DNA of 64,000 bases from an uncultured Victivallales bacterium (GTDB taxonomy: Bacteria; Verrucomicrobiota; Lentisphaeria; Victivallales; UBA1829): the NCBI GenBank assembly GCA_934661375.1, contig CAKUJH010000005.1, positions 2,498 through 66,497 of the forward strand. Reading direction: 5' to 3'. The notes under the pieces are model-generated. The model searched no databases. It worked only from the letters and a program-made list of their open reading frames with translations, and was not told the origin of the DNA. Below are positions 5,246 through 18,414 of the stretch, piece after piece. Numbering within the stretch: the first letter of the stretch is position 1; every line of letters starts with the position of its first letter. A program made the translations under genes and the position numbers.

Positions 5246-5410
5246 TCAGCGATGACGCTGGGTGCGGCGCTTTTTCTCGCTCGGCTTTTCAAAGTGTCTT
5301 CTGTTGCGAAGTTCCTTGAGGGTGCCTTCTTTGTCGAGTTTCTTTTTGAGACGGCGAAGAGCTCTTTCGATCGGTTCGCCTTTCTTCAAACGTACTTCCG
5401 TTGCTTCCAT
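5246..5410 (-). CDS. rpsU: 30S ribosomal protein S21
   Basis: Absent from the ORF track (54 aa). Minus-strand ATG (5408-5410) to TGA (5246-5248) translates to [54 protein letters not shown], a typical S21. A GAGGGGG Shine-Dalgarno sits about 8 nt upstream and a terminator lies downstream. Confidence 0.9.
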
Positions 5411-5464
5411 TGTTGTTCACCCCCTCTCTTTCACAGGTTGTTCATATTTCATGTTTTACACTCA

Positions 5465-7192
5465 TCATTCGTTGTTGGCGTAACCGGCTTCGTCCGCCAG
5501 CAGATCCCGGAGTTTACTCAATGCCTGGTTCTGAATCTGACGTACCCGTTCGCGGGTTCTGCCGATGGTCTGGCTGACTTCTTCCAGCGTTTTGGGACGT
5601 ACTCCGTCCAGACCGAAACGCATTTTCAGAATCATCCGTTCCCGTTCATCCAGTTCGCTCAGCAGATCGACCAGACGGCTGACAGATTCCACATCACTCA
5701 GAATCCGGTCGGGCGTCTGCGCCCCGCGGTCCGGAATGATGTCCTGAAATTCGCCGTCTTCCCCTTGCTGAATCGGGTCATGGAGAGAAAATGTGCGGAG
5801 ATCCGCCAGACGCAGACCAGCCACGGTTCTTTCGCTGAAATCCAAATCTTTGGCGATTTCGGCATCCGTCGGTTCACGTCCGAGTTTTTCCGCCAGTTTC
5901 GTGCGGATGGACTTGATTTTGTTGATTTTTCCCGCCGACTGCACCGGAATACGGATAATCCGGCTCTGGTTGGCAAGCGCACGGCGCATGGACTGCTTAA
6001 TCCACCATGCGGCATAAGAACTGAATTTTGCACCTTTGGCAGGATCGAATTTTTCGACCGCACGCATCAGACCGATGTTGCCTTCGGAAATCAGATCCAG
6101 CAACGGCAATCCCAGCCCCTTGAAGTCGTGTGCAATTTTGACAACCAGACGCAGGTTGGCCTTGATCAGAGTCTTGCGGGCTTCATCATGGGCGCTGTTG
6201 TCCGCCCCGTGGATAGCCGCAGCCAGAAACACTTCCTGCTCTTTGGTGACCAGCGAGATCTGCCCGATCTCGTTCATGTAGGTCTTCATGGTGTCATTTT
6301 TGGAAGCCGCGACTTTTGCACCGGCGAGTTCATTCTTCTTGTCTTCGTCTTCCGCATCCGCCCCGTCGCCGGATTCTTCCTGATCTTCCGCAGACTGTGC
6401 GGCTTCCGCTTTTACGGCTTCGTCTTCCTGATCTTCATCCTCTGCCGGCTTTTTTACCGCTTTTTCCGGCTTTGCTGTCTTTTTCGGAGCGGCGGGAACC
6501 GGTTCGATAATTTCTTCCTCTTCTGCTTTTACCGCTTTGACCGCAGGTTTCACTTCCGTTTTCTTTTCGGGTTTAGCCGCGGTTTTGACCGTAGTTGTTT
6601 TCTCGGCTTTCGGCATCGGCTTGACAGATTCTGTTTTTTCCGCTTTTGCGGGAACAGCAGCCTTGACAGAAGGAGTTTTCGCTGTTTTTACGGAATCCGC
6701 TTTGACCGGAGAAGCCGGTTCAACTTTTTTGGCTTTGACCGCTGGTGCTTTAGCCGGAGCTGTTTTCTTTTCCGCTTTATCGTTTTTTACGGGAGCCGTT
6801 TTTGCATCCGTTTTCTTTTCGGGTTTAGCCGCGGTTTTGACCGGTGTGGCGGCTTTTTTTGCCGGAGTTTCCTTAACCGCTTTCGTTGTGGAGGTTACGG
6901 CAGCTTTCTTTTCAACTTTTGCTGCAGGTTTGACCGGAGCGTTTTCTTCGGTCTTTTTGGAAACGGTTTCGGCTTTTTTGACCGGAGTCTTGCTTTTCGG
7001 AGCGGCGGCGGATTTCACTTCTGCTTTTTTCGCTGGACTGGATTTTTTCTCGGACTTCCCGTCTTTGGCAGTTGTTGATTTTTTGACCGGAGCTGCTTTT
7101 TTAGCAGACGTTTTAGCCGCGGCCGATTGGGTTGCGGAGGAGACAGCTTTTCCCAAAGCGTTCTTTTTTTCTGGAACTTTAGAAGATTTCAT
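5465..7192 (-). CDS. rpoD: primary RNA polymerase sigma-70 factor with long basic/acidic N-terminal extension
   Basis: The C-terminal ~276 aa contain regions 1.2-4 (NLRLVVKIAHDF, DLISEGNIGLMRAVEKFD, YAAWWIKQSMRRAL, TLEEVSQTIGRTRERVRQIQNQAL). I chose the start at ATG 7190-7192 (MKSSKV...) because AAGGAGG lies 12 nt upstream. The track's longer start (7342) lies inside the predicted promoter. Confidence 0.9.
   Translation of the reverse strand: MKSSKVPEKKNALGKAVSSATQSAAAKTSAKKAAPVKKSTTAKDGKSEKKSSPAKKAEVKSAAAPKSKTPVKKAETVSKKTEENAPVKPAAKVEKKAAVTSTTKAVKETPAKKAATPVKTAAKPEKKTDAKTAPVKNDKAEKKTAPAKAPAVKAKKVEPASPVKADSVKTAKTPSVKAAVPAKAEKTESVKPMPKAEKTTTVKTAAKPEKKTEVKPAVKAVKAEEEEIIEPVPAAPKKTAKPEKAVKKPAEDEDQEDEAVKAEAAQSAEDQEESGDGADAEDEDKKNELAGAKVAASKNDTMKTYMNEIGQISLVTKEQEVFLAAAIHGADNSAHDEARKTLIKANLRLVVKIAHDFKGLGLPLLDLISEGNIGLMRAVEKFDPAKGAKFSSYAAWWIKQSMRRALANQSRIIRIPVQSAGKINKIKSIRTKLAEKLGREPTDAEIAKDLDFSERTVAGLRLADLRTFSLHDPIQQGEDGEFQDIIPDRGAQTPDRILSDVESVSRLVDLLSELDERERMILKMRFGLDGVRPKTLEEVSQTIGRTRERVRQIQNQALSKLRDLLADEAGYANNE
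6555..6843. repeat. pair of perfect 37-nt direct repeats inside the rpoD N-terminal extension
   Basis: TCCGTTTTCTTTTCGGGTTTAGCCGCGGTTTTGACCG occurs at 6555-6591 and 6807-6843. The copies are 252 nt (84 codons) apart and in frame. Both encode ...VKTAAKPEKKT.... Confidence 0.9.
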
Positions 7193-7330
7193 AATGTTCA
7201 AGAACCTCCTTGGATATTTGAACTTTTCGCTATTGACTTTTTTCGTTTCCGTTATATTGTAACCCTTATGCAATGAAAATTTGCGGCAGGAAAACACCAT
7301 GCTGCGAAGACTCATTACAAATAGTCTGTA

Positions 7331-7359
7331 ATTATAATACATAAAGGCGTTTTTGTCAA
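7331..7359 (-). promoter_or_regulatory. consensus sigma70-type promoter facing rpoD
   Basis: The minus strand reads TTGACA (7359-7354), a 17-nt spacer, then TATAAT (7336-7331). Both hexamers match the consensus perfectly at optimal spacing, about 130 nt upstream of the rpoD start. Confidence 0.5.
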
Positions 7360-10300
7360 GTGGGAAAAGTTACGGAATACGAGAAAATTTTAAAAAAATG
7401 GCTGAAGAAGCCGTTTTTTACCGGACGGCAACTCTGCTCGGTGGACGAGAGTGTGGTGTCGCTGCTGGTTCTTTCGCTGTACTGCCGGGAACCGGGGAAG
7501 CGTCTGCTGCTGGAAACGCCGGGTTTTGCGCTGGGGGAAAAAATCCGCGGAGAACTGCTGCAATGGGCGGCGGGACTGGGATTGACGCCGCGCGTTCTGC
7601 TGCTTCCGGACGGTTCCAGCGGCGGCAAAAAACTGATGGAATCGGAAATTCCCCGCGCTAAAGTTCTGGATGAAGTACTGAATAATCCGCCGGATATTCT
7701 GATCGTATCCGCTTCTGCCGAACTGTCGCCGGCACCTGCACCTGACCGGATGCGCCGTTCGGAGCTGATTCTGAAGCCCGGCATGGAGCTGGCTCCGGAA
7801 AAACTGGCGGAACTGCTGACAGGCATGGACTATGATGATGAACCCGAAGTGGTTCAGAAGGGCGAATTTGCCCGGCGCGGCGGACTGATTGACGTATTTT
7901 CGCCGGCGTCCGAACAGCCGGCGCGCATTGAATTTTTCGGCGATGAAATCGAATCCATCCGGCTGTTTTCGGCGCAAGCCCAGATTTCGACCGGAGAAGT
8001 TCAGGAATATAAGCTGATTATGCGTTCCGGGGCGGGTGAATCTGAATCGGTTCAGGACAGTGATTTCACGGAATATGTCAAATGCTATAATCCTCAGATT
8101 GTTACGCTGTTTCCTTCCGAATGTGTGGAGATTCTGAAACGGTTCGGGGCTGCCGGTATGCCGGAACGCTGGCTGGCGCTTCATGAAAAAGAACCCGCCT
8201 GGCGTGATTCCATCCGTCTGCTGGATGAATTGGAAAGTGCATCTGTTCCGGAAAAGGAAAAATGTATCTCCCCGGTTTTTCCGTCGGCGCGTCATATTCT
8301 GAAATTGGTTCCGGAGGGCACGGAGGAAAATTTTTCCGAGCTGATCCGCCAGATCAGTTCCAGTCTGATCCGTCAGCTTGCCGGCGAAAAATACCGGGTG
8401 CTGATAGCGGGCGGGGCAGACGGCAGTCAGAATGCTCTGCATCAATGGCTGGAGGAAGAGCATCTGGACAAGCTGGAGAATGTGGAATGTCTTCCCTTGA
8501 CGATTCCGCGCGGTGTTTTTCTGCCCGGAGAAAAACTTGCACTGTTTTCGGAGTATGAACTGTATTCTTCACCGCGGCGTCTGGCGTCCGGCAAAAAAAC
8601 GGCTCCGGAGCCTGTGGAAGAACAGGATTTCCGCAAAGACAAAGTGCGCGACGCCATCGGGGAAAGTCTTTCATCCGATCTAGAGGAGGGAGATTACGCC
8701 GTTCATCTGAACTACGGGATCTGCATTTACCGCGGGCTGAAAACCGTTTCCGACAAGCAAAGCACCTCCGAAGTGATGGAACTGGAATTTGAAGACGACA
8801 AAATTGTGTATGTTCCGATCTGGCAGTCCTATTGCGTATCGCGTTATATCGGTTCACGGAAAGGAAACGTCAAGCTGAGCAAGATCGGCAGCACCCGCTG
8901 GAATAAAACCAAATCCGACGCCGCGGATTCGGTGCGCACGCTGGCTCTGGACATGCTTCGGGTTCATGCGATCCGCTGCCGTGCGGAAGGCACGAAATTT
9001 CCGGATGACGATCTGGCACAGCATCTTTTTGAAAAATCTTTTCCGTTCACGGAAACCCCGGATCAGCTGCGCGCGGCGGAGGAAATCAAGAAGGACATGG
9101 AGTCGCCGCGTCCGATGGACCGTCTGCTGTGCGGCGATGTGGGATACGGCAAAACGGAAATTGCCATGCGCGCCGTGTTCAAGTGTGTGATGTCGGGACG
9201 GCAGGCCGCGGTACTGGTGCCGACAACGGTTCTGGCGCAGCAGCACTACTATAATTTTCTGGAACGCTTTGCGGAATATCCGGTCATCATCGAGACACTC
9301 AGCCGATTCCGCACCAAAGCGCAGCAGCGGGAAATCATTGAACGCCTGAAACATGGCAAGGTGGATGTGGTGATCGGGACGCACCGTCTGCTTCAGGAAG
9401 ATGTGAAATTCCAGAATCTCGGTCTGGTCGTGGTGGACGAGGAACAGCGATTCGGGGTCATGCACAAGGAAAAACTGAAAAATCTCCGCACCACGGTGGA
9501 TGTGCTGACGATGACTGCGACGCCGATTCCGCGGACACTGTATTTTTCGATGGCGGGGATGCGTGATCTCAGTACGATCATGAGCGCACCGGTACAGCGT
9601 CTTCCGGTGCAGACCGTGGTTTCGCAGTATGACGACCAGCTGATTGCGGGGGCGATTTCGCGGGAACTGCAGCGCGGCGGACAGGTGTATTATCTGCACA
9701 ACCGGGTGCAGTCGATCGAAGATACAGCGGAACATCTGCGGCAGATGTTTCCCGCGGCACGCATCGGGGTTGGTCATGGGCAGATGGACGAGCATCAGCT
9801 GGAAGAAGTCATGGGATCCTTCATTGAGGGAAAAACCGATATCCTGGTCAGCACCACGATCATTGAATCCGGACTGGACATTCCGAATGCGAACACCATT
9901 CTGATCGAACGTGCGGACCGCTTTGGACTGGCGGAGCTGTATCAGCTGCGCGGACGGGTTGGACGCTGGCGGCGGCAGGCGTATGCGTACCTGCTGCTGC
10001 CGAAAAACGGAATCATGTCGGGCGATGTGCGGAAGCGGATTGCCGCCATGCGCAAATACACCCATCTGGGCGCAGGGTTCAAGCTGGCTCTGCGCGACCT
10101 GGAAATCCGCGGCGCCGGCAACATTCTGGGCGCGGAACAGAGCGGTCATATCAATGCAATCGGTTTCACTCTGTACTGCGATCTGCTGCGGACGGTAACT
10201 TCCCAGCTGAAAGGCGAGGAGACCACGCTGCGCCGGGAATGCAATGTGTATCTGGACTTTGTGGAATATGCGCTGAAAGCTCCGCCCGGCAAAGCCGCCG

Positions 10301-10647
10301 CGGCGTTTTCGCCGGATTACATCAATTCCGAACGGCTGCGTCTGGATGCGTACCGCCGTCTGGCTTCGATTCACGATGCGGCGAAGCTGAATGAATTTGA
10401 AAAGGAAATCACGGATCGTTTCGGACGAATGCCGCGGGAAGCCGAAAACCTGCTGGTCTGCGCACGGATCCGGATTCTGGGGGAGGGCGCGCGTCTGCGG
10501 TCGCTCAGCTGTTCTGCCGGACGGATTCTGATGGAGCGCGGGCAGGAGCTGGTTAAAGTGAACGGACGGATTCCGATTCTGCCGAATATGGGGACACCGG
10601 AAGCGAAACTGCGGATGCTGAAGGGGATGCTGGAAAAATTCTGGTGA
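7360..10647 (+). CDS. mfd: transcription-repair coupling factor
   Basis: 1095 aa with a CarD/TRCF-type RNAP-interaction region (DYAVHLNYGICIYRGL) and SF2 translocase motifs GDVGYGKTE and VVDEEQRFG, plus a C-terminal TRG region. GTG start. Confidence 0.9.
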   Translation: MGKVTEYEKILKKWLKKPFFTGRQLCSVDESVVSLLVLSLYCREPGKRLLLETPGFALGEKIRGELLQWAAGLGLTPRVLLLPDGSSGGKKLMESEIPRAKVLDEVLNNPPDILIVSASAELSPAPAPDRMRRSELILKPGMELAPEKLAELLTGMDYDDEPEVVQKGEFARRGGLIDVFSPASEQPARIEFFGDEIESIRLFSAQAQISTGEVQEYKLIMRSGAGESESVQDSDFTEYVKCYNPQIVTLFPSECVEILKRFGAAGMPERWLALHEKEPAWRDSIRLLDELESASVPEKEKCISPVFPSARHILKLVPEGTEENFSELIRQISSSLIRQLAGEKYRVLIAGGADGSQNALHQWLEEEHLDKLENVECLPLTIPRGVFLPGEKLALFSEYELYSSPRRLASGKKTAPEPVEEQDFRKDKVRDAIGESLSSDLEEGDYAVHLNYGICIYRGLKTVSDKQSTSEVMELEFEDDKIVYVPIWQSYCVSRYIGSRKGNVKLSKIGSTRWNKTKSDAADSVRTLALDMLRVHAIRCRAEGTKFPDDDLAQHLFEKSFPFTETPDQLRAAEEIKKDMESPRPMDRLLCGDVGYGKTEIAMRAVFKCVMSGRQAAVLVPTTVLAQQHYYNFLERFAEYPVIIETLSRFRTKAQQREIIERLKHGKVDVVIGTHRLLQEDVKFQNLGLVVVDEEQRFGVMHKEKLKNLRTTVDVLTMTATPIPRTLYFSMAGMRDLSTIMSAPVQRLPVQTVVSQYDDQLIAGAISRELQRGGQVYYLHNRVQSIEDTAEHLRQMFPAARIGVGHGQMDEHQLEEVMGSFIEGKTDILVSTTIIESGLDIPNANTILIERADRFGLAELYQLRGRVGRWRRQAYAYLLLPKNGIMSGDVRKRIAAMRKYTHLGAGFKLALRDLEIRGAGNILGAEQSGHINAIGFTLYCDLLRTVTSQLKGEETTLRRECNVYLDFVEYALKAPPGKAAAAFSPDYINSERLRLDAYRRLASIHDAAKLNEFEKEITDRFGRMPREAENLLVCARIRILGEGARLRSLSCSAGRILMERGQELVKVNGRIPILPNMGTPEAKLRMLKGMLEKFW

Positions 10648-17461: not shown

Positions 17462-17464
17462 ATC

Positions 17465-17992
17465 ATGTCGAAATTTACAGGTAAATCCCCGTGGGTGGTG
17501 CATTTCAACTGCAACAGCTGCAACGGCTGCGACATTGAATTTCTGGCTTGTCTCACCCCGCTTTATGATGCGGAACGGTTCGGCATCATTCATGTCGGCA
17601 CACCGAAACATGCGGATGTGCTGGTGGTAACCGGCTCCGTCAATGAAAAGAACAAACACGTGCTGAAAAACGTGTACGATCAGATACCGTCCCCGAAAGT
17701 TGTGGTCGCCATGGGCGTCTGTGCTGCCACGGGCGGTATTTTTGCCGACTGTTACAATGTGGTTGGCGGTGTCGGCAAAGTGATTCCCGTCGACGTGTAT
17801 GTGCCGGGATGTCCCCCGAAACCGGAAGCCATGCTGGACGGCATCGTGAAGGCGGTGGAAATCCTCGGAAAGAAACGGCGTGACAGCGAAACCGAAAAAC
17901 CGGAACTGCCGGTGAAGATCGTAACTCCGAAAGAGGTTCCGGCGGCTCCTGCACCTGCCGCCGCCCCGGAGAAAAAGGAGACTGAAAAATGA
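17465..17992 (+). CDS. echC: Ech-type hydrogenase small subunit (NuoB-like, proximal [4Fe-4S])
   Basis: CNSCNGCDIE, GVCAATGG and VPGCPPKPE are present. It ends in a Pro/Ala/Lys-rich tail. Confidence 0.85.
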   Translation: MSKFTGKSPWVVHFNCNSCNGCDIEFLACLTPLYDAERFGIIHVGTPKHADVLVVTGSVNEKNKHVLKNVYDQIPSPKVVVAMGVCAATGGIFADCYNVVGGVGKVIPVDVYVPGCPPKPEAMLDGIVKAVEILGKKRRDSETEKPELPVKIVTPKEVPAAPAPAAAPEKKETEK

Positions 17993-18414
17993 TGACGATC
18001 AACGAAGAAGCAACCAAAGCAACGATTCTGGAAGAAGTGGTTCCCCTGTTGTCGCAGGGATACCGGTTCGTTACCATGACGGCGGTGGACTGCGATGACC
18101 ATTTCGATATTTACTATCATTTTGATAAGGACTACGAACTGTTCACGATCCGGGTTCAGCTGGAAAAACCGGGGGAAATCAGCAGTATTTCCACGGTCTG
18201 TTTCCCTGCGCTGATTGTGGAGAACGAGATTCAGGATTTGTTCGGAATCAAGTTCAGCGATCTGGTTCTGGATTACCGGAATCATTTCCTGCTGTCTCCG
18301 GATGCTCCGGTCAAACCGTTCTGTCATGTTCCCGGCGTGAAAGTTACCGCCGTGGAAGCCCCGAAAGCCAAACCCGCCGCAGGCGAAGCCCAGAAAGAGG
18401 AGGCAGCGAAATGA
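17989..18414 (+). CDS. echD: Ech-type hydrogenase subunit at EchD position (NuoC/30-kDa-like)
   Basis: 141 aa. VTMTAVDCDDHFDIYYHF...VENEIQDLFGIKFSD resembles NuoC (ERE..DMFGI.F). It has ATGA overlaps with both neighbours. Confidence 0.7.
   Translation: MMTINEEATKATILEEVVPLLSQGYRFVTMTAVDCDDHFDIYYHFDKDYELFTIRVQLEKPGEISSISTVCFPALIVENEIQDLFGIKFSDLVLDYRNHFLLSPDAPVKPFCHVPGVKVTAVEAPKAKPAAGEAQKEEAAK

Follow-up and report, generated by a model that had tools for sequence, protein, structure and literature searches.

Does the housekeeping sigma factor of an uncultured Victivallales bacterium carry a long, histone-like basic arm at its N-terminus, and what might such an arm do for transcription? The question arises from a gene on the minus strand of contig CAKUJH010000005.1 (assembly GCA_934661375.1), within a stretch of 64,000 nucleotides (nt) that is called the window below. 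The open reading frame (ORF) spans 5465..7342 and gives a product of 575 amino acids (aa) when read from the ATG at 7192; an identical 575-aa protein exists in public data (P0286). An earlier description made from the DNA letters, the sequence-only reading, had presented this protein as a sigma factor with a basic, Lys/Ala/Pro-rich N-terminus of about 300 residues, followed by an acidic patch and by a conserved core limited to the last ~276 codons (regions 1.2 to 4). Composition and Pfam analysis confirmed the coordinates and the peptide of the N-terminal parts, and Pfam located regions 1.2-4 at aa 300-562. The extension is intrinsically disordered, fast-evolving and typical of its lineage, standing in for the folded region 1.1. 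The gene that encodes it is very probably that of the principal (RpoD/SigA-type) sigma of a gut Victivallales (Lentisphaerota) bacterium.

The Pfam families of regions 1.2, 2, 3 and 4 (Table 1) occur in this order, each above its gathering score, and Pfam detected no non-conserved insert separating regions 1.2 and 2. Region 1.1 (PF03979) gave no Pfam match, either with the whole protein or with the extension alone. Three characteristic features mark the part ahead of the core: (i) a basic segment (aa 1-249) with 26.5% K, no R, 20.9% A, 10.4% P, 10% T, 10% V and 10.4% D+E, a net charge of +40 (+0.16 per residue), PVK, PAK and P.KK motifs, and five copies of S/T-P-x-K and seven of P-x-K-K; (ii) an acidic segment (aa 250-292, AEDEDQEDEAVKAEAAQSAEDQEESGDGADAEDEDKK...) with 44% D+E and a net charge of -16, occupying the site that acidic region 1.1 or its linker holds in other sigmas; (iii) a conserved junction, at which K293 is conserved in at least 90% of the aligned sequences and the alignment columns become invariant from K298 on. 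The AlphaFold2 prediction, run with a 30-sequence alignment, assigns to aa 1-295 a predicted local distance difference test (pLDDT) score of 33-43, below 50, with no secondary structure, the first helix being placed at 298-310. A search for DNA tandem repeats over 6200-7300 returned only two trivial rows of 9-10 nt; the extension of this strain is low-complexity rather than a clean repeat array. Among all ORFs of the window, only one segment, the sigma extension, passes a lysine-rich filter (K >= 6 and K+A+P >= 17 per 30 aa), and with this same filter no proteome-wide drift towards lysine tails was seen within the 64 kb.

The spread of the extension was followed by scanning one genome per species, and 80 loci, each from a different assembly, were kept. 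All belong to Lentisphaerota (Victivallales or Lentisphaeria metagenome-assembled genomes) save one bin labelled Kiritimatiellota. Their cores measure 272-278 aa, 275 aa in almost all loci, and are 80-95% identical across the order. Ahead of the core, the open frame measures anything between about 68 and about 690 aa and is at least 60 aa long in 77 of the 80 species; in about 70 species the frame has stayed open although its sequence has turned over completely. A strongly basic window (net +8 or more per 40 aa) is found in 69 of the 77 species with such an extension, and an acidic one (-10 or less) in 35 of them, usually 13-40 aa ahead of region 1.2. In a database of 5.8 billion proteins, lysine makes up 18-29% of the residues upstream of the core in every one of the 120 best homologues. 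When the core alone was searched exhaustively against 50%-identity representatives, nearly all those with at least 66% identity carried the lysine-rich extension, whereas the next-nearest sigmas (below 60%) were mostly of ~280 aa without it, with sporadic exceptions. By these comparisons the extension is a clade trait of hypervariable length, and the acidic patch a trait of a subclade.

The sequence-only reading had called the architecture unusual, and had left room for the extension being a common feature, already described in this clade. It is indeed common, widespread in Lentisphaerota and in no way peculiar to the strain of the window. With the great majority of species and every one of the best homologues extended, and with the same layout documented in two actinobacterial sigmas discussed below, the word unusual does not hold. 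A description of the Lentisphaerota sigma extension was not found in the literature, where a search on sigma factors of this phylum returned no relevant paper and a search for lysine-rich sigma tails gave nothing beyond the actinobacterial papers.

Several relatives show the extension in other forms. In P0067, P0011 and P0035 it consists of arrays, 300-430 aa long, of almost pure AKKAEPVKK or PVKK, and an HC2 (PF07382) match was precomputed for the homologue P0014. In cultured Victivallis vadensis (L036, L079) the sigma tail measures 227-282 aa and has 28-30% K. The longest open frames ahead of the core reach 687-692 aa (L015, L016), 681 aa (L011) and 523 aa (P0122); these putative extensions are two to three times as long as that of the window, with a lower K content of 13-19%, and that of P0122 is rich in S/G/T besides K. 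Outside the close clade, P0149 (467 aa) has a long K/A/T-rich N-terminal tail, and P0252 (680 aa, with a 44% identical core) bears a 400-aa K/A/T tail ahead of a canonical-looking region 1.1. The latter two sequences suggest that lysine-rich sigma tails arose repeatedly.

The reality of the extension as protein depends on the position of the translation start, for which ATG 7192 is favoured by the features of the sequence. The Shine-Dalgarno sequence AAGGAGG lies at 7211-7205, 12 nt ahead of this codon, and the sense frame of the extension contains no stop in 894 nt, as the sequence-only reading had stated for both; in 5000 shuffles of this sequence the frame never stayed open. Five relatives (L001, L002, L005, L007 and L008, with 59-91% identity) share GGAGG at the same 12-nt spacing together with an MKSS(K/S)..KK start, and this N-terminal motif is present in 37 of the 120 best homologues. 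Automatic picking of starts by the Shine-Dalgarno sequence across the 80 loci was noisy, with many loci lacking such a sequence or giving an internal pick, and the picks were used solely for the subclade in which the MKSS start and the spacing agree.

The upstream limit is set by the promoter of the sigma gene (Table 1), identical in the relatives L081 and L083. Its position puts the predicted transcription start near 7323, so that ATG 7342 lies outside the transcript, inside the promoter spacer. Between 7193 and 7400 (the rpoD-mfd intergenic region and the first 41 nt of mfd) the window differs from L081 by one substitution in 208 nt and a 1-nt indel; in contrast to this near-invariant stretch, about 14% of sigma-core codons differ synonymously. 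The indel, near 7291 in L081, puts ATG 7300 and ATG 7342 out of frame. The candidate upstream starts ATG 7342, 7315 and 7300, which correspond to models of 611 to 625 aa, were rejected, given the location of the first in the promoter spacer and the frame shift of 7300 and 7342 in L081. No Rfam match was obtained in the whole window, so that no known leader element is present, and the fold of the 137-nt 5' leader was not significant (z = -0.33). A small hairpin (GUUCAA...UUGAAC) holds the Shine-Dalgarno sequence in its loop.

A late start near region 1.2, at Met302 or Met306, would turn the upstream 900 nt into a leader and the extension into an annotation artefact. Such a reading could appeal to the disagreement of gene callers, since public models for this sigma measure 371, 383, 575, 583, 603, 611 and 618 aa (a spread of up to 247 aa; P0276, P0010, P0001-P0009 and P0277-P0288 differ in length). 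The NCBI model MCI6288804.1 (P0276), from a near-identical strain, begins at an internal GTG and has lost ~200 aa of the tail, while some other callers run the sigma model into the 5' leader. The antisense frames are nearly open as well, as is typical of low-complexity DNA. Against this stand the lack of any Shine-Dalgarno-like sequence ahead of Met302 (ATG 6289) or Met306 (ATG 6277), the failure of all shuffles to stay open, the frame kept open in so many species, the in-frame indels inside the extension (described below) as opposed to the 1-nt indel just upstream of ATG 7192, and the conserved start peptide and ribosome-binding-site spacing. A late start is thus very improbable. The seven product lengths imply different starts, and the database entries for these sigmas are therefore inconsistent.

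Selection on the extension was assessed by aligning the window to two gut-metagenome relatives, L083 and L081, whose proteins are 98% and 95% identical, respectively. Within the extension only two indels were found, one of 21 nt and one of 3 nt, and neither disturbs the frame. Against L081, the 298 codons of the extension (6299-7192) show 19 synonymous and 20 non-synonymous differences, and the 276 codons of the core 40 synonymous and 1 non-synonymous. These counts indicate very strong purifying selection on the core and very little constraint on the sequence of the tail.

The main rival explanation draws on the same comparison. It holds that the extension is translated but has essentially grown by replication slippage into low-complexity sequence that drifts and is tolerated, acting as a spacer or "entropic bristle" without a specific role in nucleic-acid binding or regulation. 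About ten-fold variation in length (68-690 aa) on a constant core would fit such drift, as would non-synonymous changes nearly as frequent as synonymous ones between close strains, repeat arrays in relatives that resemble products of slippage, and the dispensable basic segment of the Mycobacterium tuberculosis SigA (see below). A neutral expansion, however, is not expected to hold the sign of its charge or to remain in one gene. Here the lysine-rich composition is kept phylum-wide (in the 69 of 77 species with a strongly basic window and in each of the 120 best homologues), no other protein of the window passes the lysine-rich filter, and the observed indels are all in frame. Pure drift is for these reasons considered rather unlikely.

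The assignment as principal sigma rests on conservation, synteny and annotation. The closest solved relatives in the PDB are SigA, HrdB and RpoS chains, with the SigA proteins 7ckq, 7l7b and 8x6f at the top. A look-up of cluster names gave a single informative one, that of a member of the same 90% cluster, named by NCBI [quoted passage not shown], and one homologue is named "primary sigma factor" by JGI. The presence of rpsU directly downstream and the fully consensus sigma-70 promoter upstream were also counted for the principal role. Two results of the NCBIfam search speak against the assignment. The curated RpoD cut-offs were missed (TIGR02393, 247.8 bits versus 354; PRK09210, 257.6 versus 572; PRK05658 likewise), and the marginally best scores came from the RpoS models (271 and 268 bits), again below cut-off (271 versus 394). 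These RpoD and RpoS models were trained on other phyla, and missed cut-offs are compatible with a principal role.

On the strength of those RpoS scores, slightly above the RpoD ones, the gene could be taken for an alternative, RpoS-like group-2 sigma whose tail would be a stress-sigma specialisation; the lack of region 1.1 and of an insert between regions 1.2 and 2, and the RpoS chains among the PDB matches, would agree with this. The absence of region 1.1 in Pfam is shared by an accepted principal sigma, SigA of M. tuberculosis, and compact primary sigmas of about 280 aa occur in many phyla. An RpoS-like identity is further contradicted by the SigA proteins at the head of the PDB matches, by a core so strongly conserved over 80 species with one locus per assembly, by the linkage to rpsU, by the consensus sigma-70 promoter and by the NCBI and JGI names. 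It is judged improbable.

The window sigma is a new example of the basic-then-acidic design known in sigmas of Mycobacterium and Streptomyces. M. tuberculosis SigA (5uh5_F), a primary sigma, lacks a Pfam region 1.1 just as the window sigma does. Its aa 1-103 are basic and rich in A/K/R/P/T/S (15% K, 8% R, 28% A, net +19), and its aa 104-212, directly ahead of region 1.2, are acidic (45% D+E, net -47 over 109 aa). This extension of about 205-225 aa, missing from the solved models, is functionally important; the N-terminus has been called a 205-aa disordered extension (PMC11888270, PMC10011835). SigA remains functional without aa 1-132 but loses its function when the acidic aa 132-179 are removed (PMC10011835). 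Deletion of the extension lowers steady-state transcription about 100-fold, by an unknown mechanism (PMC11888270). There are several differences between the two proteins. In the window sigma the basic part is 2.4 times longer, has lysine only (no arginine) and more E and V, and the acidic part is shorter (43 aa). Its core lacks the insert that actinobacterial sigmas have between regions 1.2 and 2, and the alignment of SigA to the query begins only at region 2 (query aa 336-563). The extensions have no detectable sequence homology, and the organisms belong to different phyla (Lentisphaerota and Actinomycetota).

HrdB of Streptomyces coelicolor (8k60_F / 7vpz_F) presents the same order of parts, namely AKK/TAKK repeats at aa 77-161 (25% K, 34% A, net +21), then 45 aa of acidic sequence with a net charge of -17, and finally region 1.2. 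The phmmer program aligned query aa 168-300 to HrdB aa 77-215, with a composition bias of 43 bits over this alignment; the likeness of the two extensions is on this evidence to be read as compositional. HrdB has a weak match to region 1.1 (PF03979, E = 0.0085, aa 18-79) ahead of the repeats, whereas the window sigma begins directly in lysine-rich sequence. The net charge per residue of the basic part is +0.25 in HrdB and +0.18 in M. tuberculosis SigA, compared with the value of +0.16 given above, and the acidic parts contain 40% and 45% D+E, respectively, compared with 44%. Lysine repeats have been recorded in HrdB and in Bordetella pertussis RpoD, are enriched in Streptomyces DNA-binding proteins, stabilise TopA on DNA and have been linked to GC-rich genomes (PMC5714199). 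In contrast to this last link, the window has 54.6% GC and 55 of the 71 lysine codons of its extension are AAA. The presence of the extension in the Lentisphaerota representatives of at least 66% identity, and its absence from most of the next-nearest sigmas, suggest that it arose independently of the actinobacterial one.

The term histone-H1-like, used in the sequence-only reading, is justified as far as composition goes. The C-terminal domain of histone H1, chlamydial Hc1/Hc2 and the tails of Streptomyces DdbA and HupS (PMC3643593) are K/A/P-rich, disordered and furnished with S/T-P-x-K and P-x-K-K motifs, like the tail of the window sigma. The term does not extend to homology or to charge density. 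The extension alone (aa 1-298) matched no Pfam family at E <= 10, H1, Hc1 and HC2 included, and, unlike H1 or Hc1/Hc2, the tail has 26% K with 10% acidic residues and is fused to a sigma instead of a DNA-architectural domain. Region 1.1 of Escherichia coli sigma-70 is a net-negative segment just N-terminal of region 1.2, a position shared with the acidic segment of the window; the latter is short, of low complexity and without predicted helices, whereas the former is a folded helical domain.

Taken as a whole, the best explanation, slightly favoured over its being wrong, is that a translated principal sigma combines an acidic equivalent of region 1.1 with a lysine-rich tail that has affinity for nucleic acids. 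The 43-residue acidic segment that adjoins region 1.2 probably does the work of region 1.1, as its position, its charge and the M. tuberculosis deletion data indicate. It would serve as a polyanionic DNA mimic in or near the DNA channel of RNA polymerase and would modulate open-complex formation and the recycling of sigma and core. The 249-residue lysine-rich polyampholyte probably confers on sigma or the holoenzyme a weak, sequence-independent electrostatic affinity for nucleic acids, or drives condensation, as suggested by its composition and by analogy with the lysine repeats of TopA, HupS and DdbA (PMC5714199, PMC3643593). Such a tail could raise the local concentration of sigma on the nucleoid, and tethering to the nucleoid is plausible. 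The tail would then be an accessory function, with selection acting on its composition, not on sequence or length.

Several points weigh against this explanation. The case for DNA binding by the tail comes from composition, and the tail, as a polyampholyte with 10% D+E, is far less basic than histone H1 tails. Protein evolution in the extension is almost neutral between close strains. The assays made on M. tuberculosis SigA showed that its basic part can be dispensed with (PMC10011835). In 23 of the 77 species the acidic window is wholly absent, so that a role like that of region 1.1 cannot hold clade-wide; for the same reason the earlier idea that the acidic segment serves to neutralise the basic tail fails as a general rule.

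A bolder proposal is that the Lentisphaerota housekeeping sigma doubles as a nucleoid-associated, H1-like protein, in which a K/A/P tail of 70-690 residues would hold free sigma or holoenzyme on DNA or RNA, or drive transcription condensates. This is doubtful. If it were true, promoter search and sigma recycling would not follow the E. coli model; the tail, of an origin independent of the actinobacterial one, would be a recurrent, selected solution instead of a lineage quirk. Should the tail be functional, a second, unrelated phylum would have evolved the disordered basic-then-acidic N-terminus seen in mycobacterial SigA. With a constant core, tails from ~70 to ~690 aa and an acidic patch present or absent, Lentisphaerota offer a natural panel for learning how such tails affect promoter search, the recycling of sigma or nucleoid association. 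If the tail proves not to be functional, the gene is a clear case of a tolerated low-complexity expansion in an essential protein.

Table 1. Positions of the sigma gene, its parts and the neighbouring features in the window
Feature	Position (nt)	Strand	Residues (aa)	Evidence or remark
rpoD/sigA coding sequence	5465..7192	minus		575 aa + stop
Basic disordered tail	6446..7192	minus	1-249	composition, AlphaFold2
Acidic disordered segment	6317..6445	minus	250-292	composition
Junction K293, K298, N299 (...KVAASKND) + region 1.2	6209..6316	minus		column conservation, Pfam, AlphaFold2
Region 1.2		minus	300-328	Pfam PF00140
Sigma-70 region 2	5960..6169	minus	342-411	PF04542, E = 1.6e-19
Sigma-70 region 3	5708..5929	minus	422-495	PF04539, E = 4.9e-18
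Sigma-70 region 4	5507..5665	minus	510-562	PF04545, E = 5.3e-17
5' leader with Shine-Dalgarno sequence	7193..7323	minus		~130 nt; sequence
Sigma-gene promoter	7331..7359	minus		TTGACA-17-TATAAT, 12/12 sigma-70 consensus positions
rpsU (ribosomal protein S21)	5246..5410	minus		PF01165, E = 8.5e-11; 54 nt downstream of sigma gene
mfd (transcription-repair coupling factor)	7360..10647	plus		ORF, divergent from sigma gene
EchC-like ORF (NuoB family)	17462-17989	plus		PF01058; 35-aa C-terminal tail, 17885-17989
EchD-like ORF (30-kDa family)	17986-18411	plus		PF00329; 26-aa C-terminal tail, 18328-18405

The genes on both sides of the sigma gene recur in relatives. The rpsU neighbour is also found in L081, L082 and L083. 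The order rpoD then rpsU, with no dnaG between them, is the reverse of the arrangement in E. coli, where the order is rpsU-dnaG-rpoD. On the other side, the -35 hexamer of the sigma-gene promoter directly adjoins the start codon of mfd (7360), and the mfd neighbour in relatives was recognised by the Pfam families CarD_TRCF_RID, DEAD, Helicase_C and TRCF. A weaker promoter-like site on the plus strand, at 7233-7260, could serve mfd.

Two antisense ORFs lie in the shadow of the sigma gene on the plus strand, at 5252-7078 (608 aa) and 6537-7262 (241 aa). Their products are F/R/L/C-rich or of low complexity and look like artefacts of the sense codon composition, not genes. Further away, the EchC-like and EchD-like ORFs do end in tails containing P, A and K, as the sequence-only reading had pointed out in likening them to the sigma extension; the likeness is partial, these P/A/E/K-rich tails being short and not dominated by lysine.

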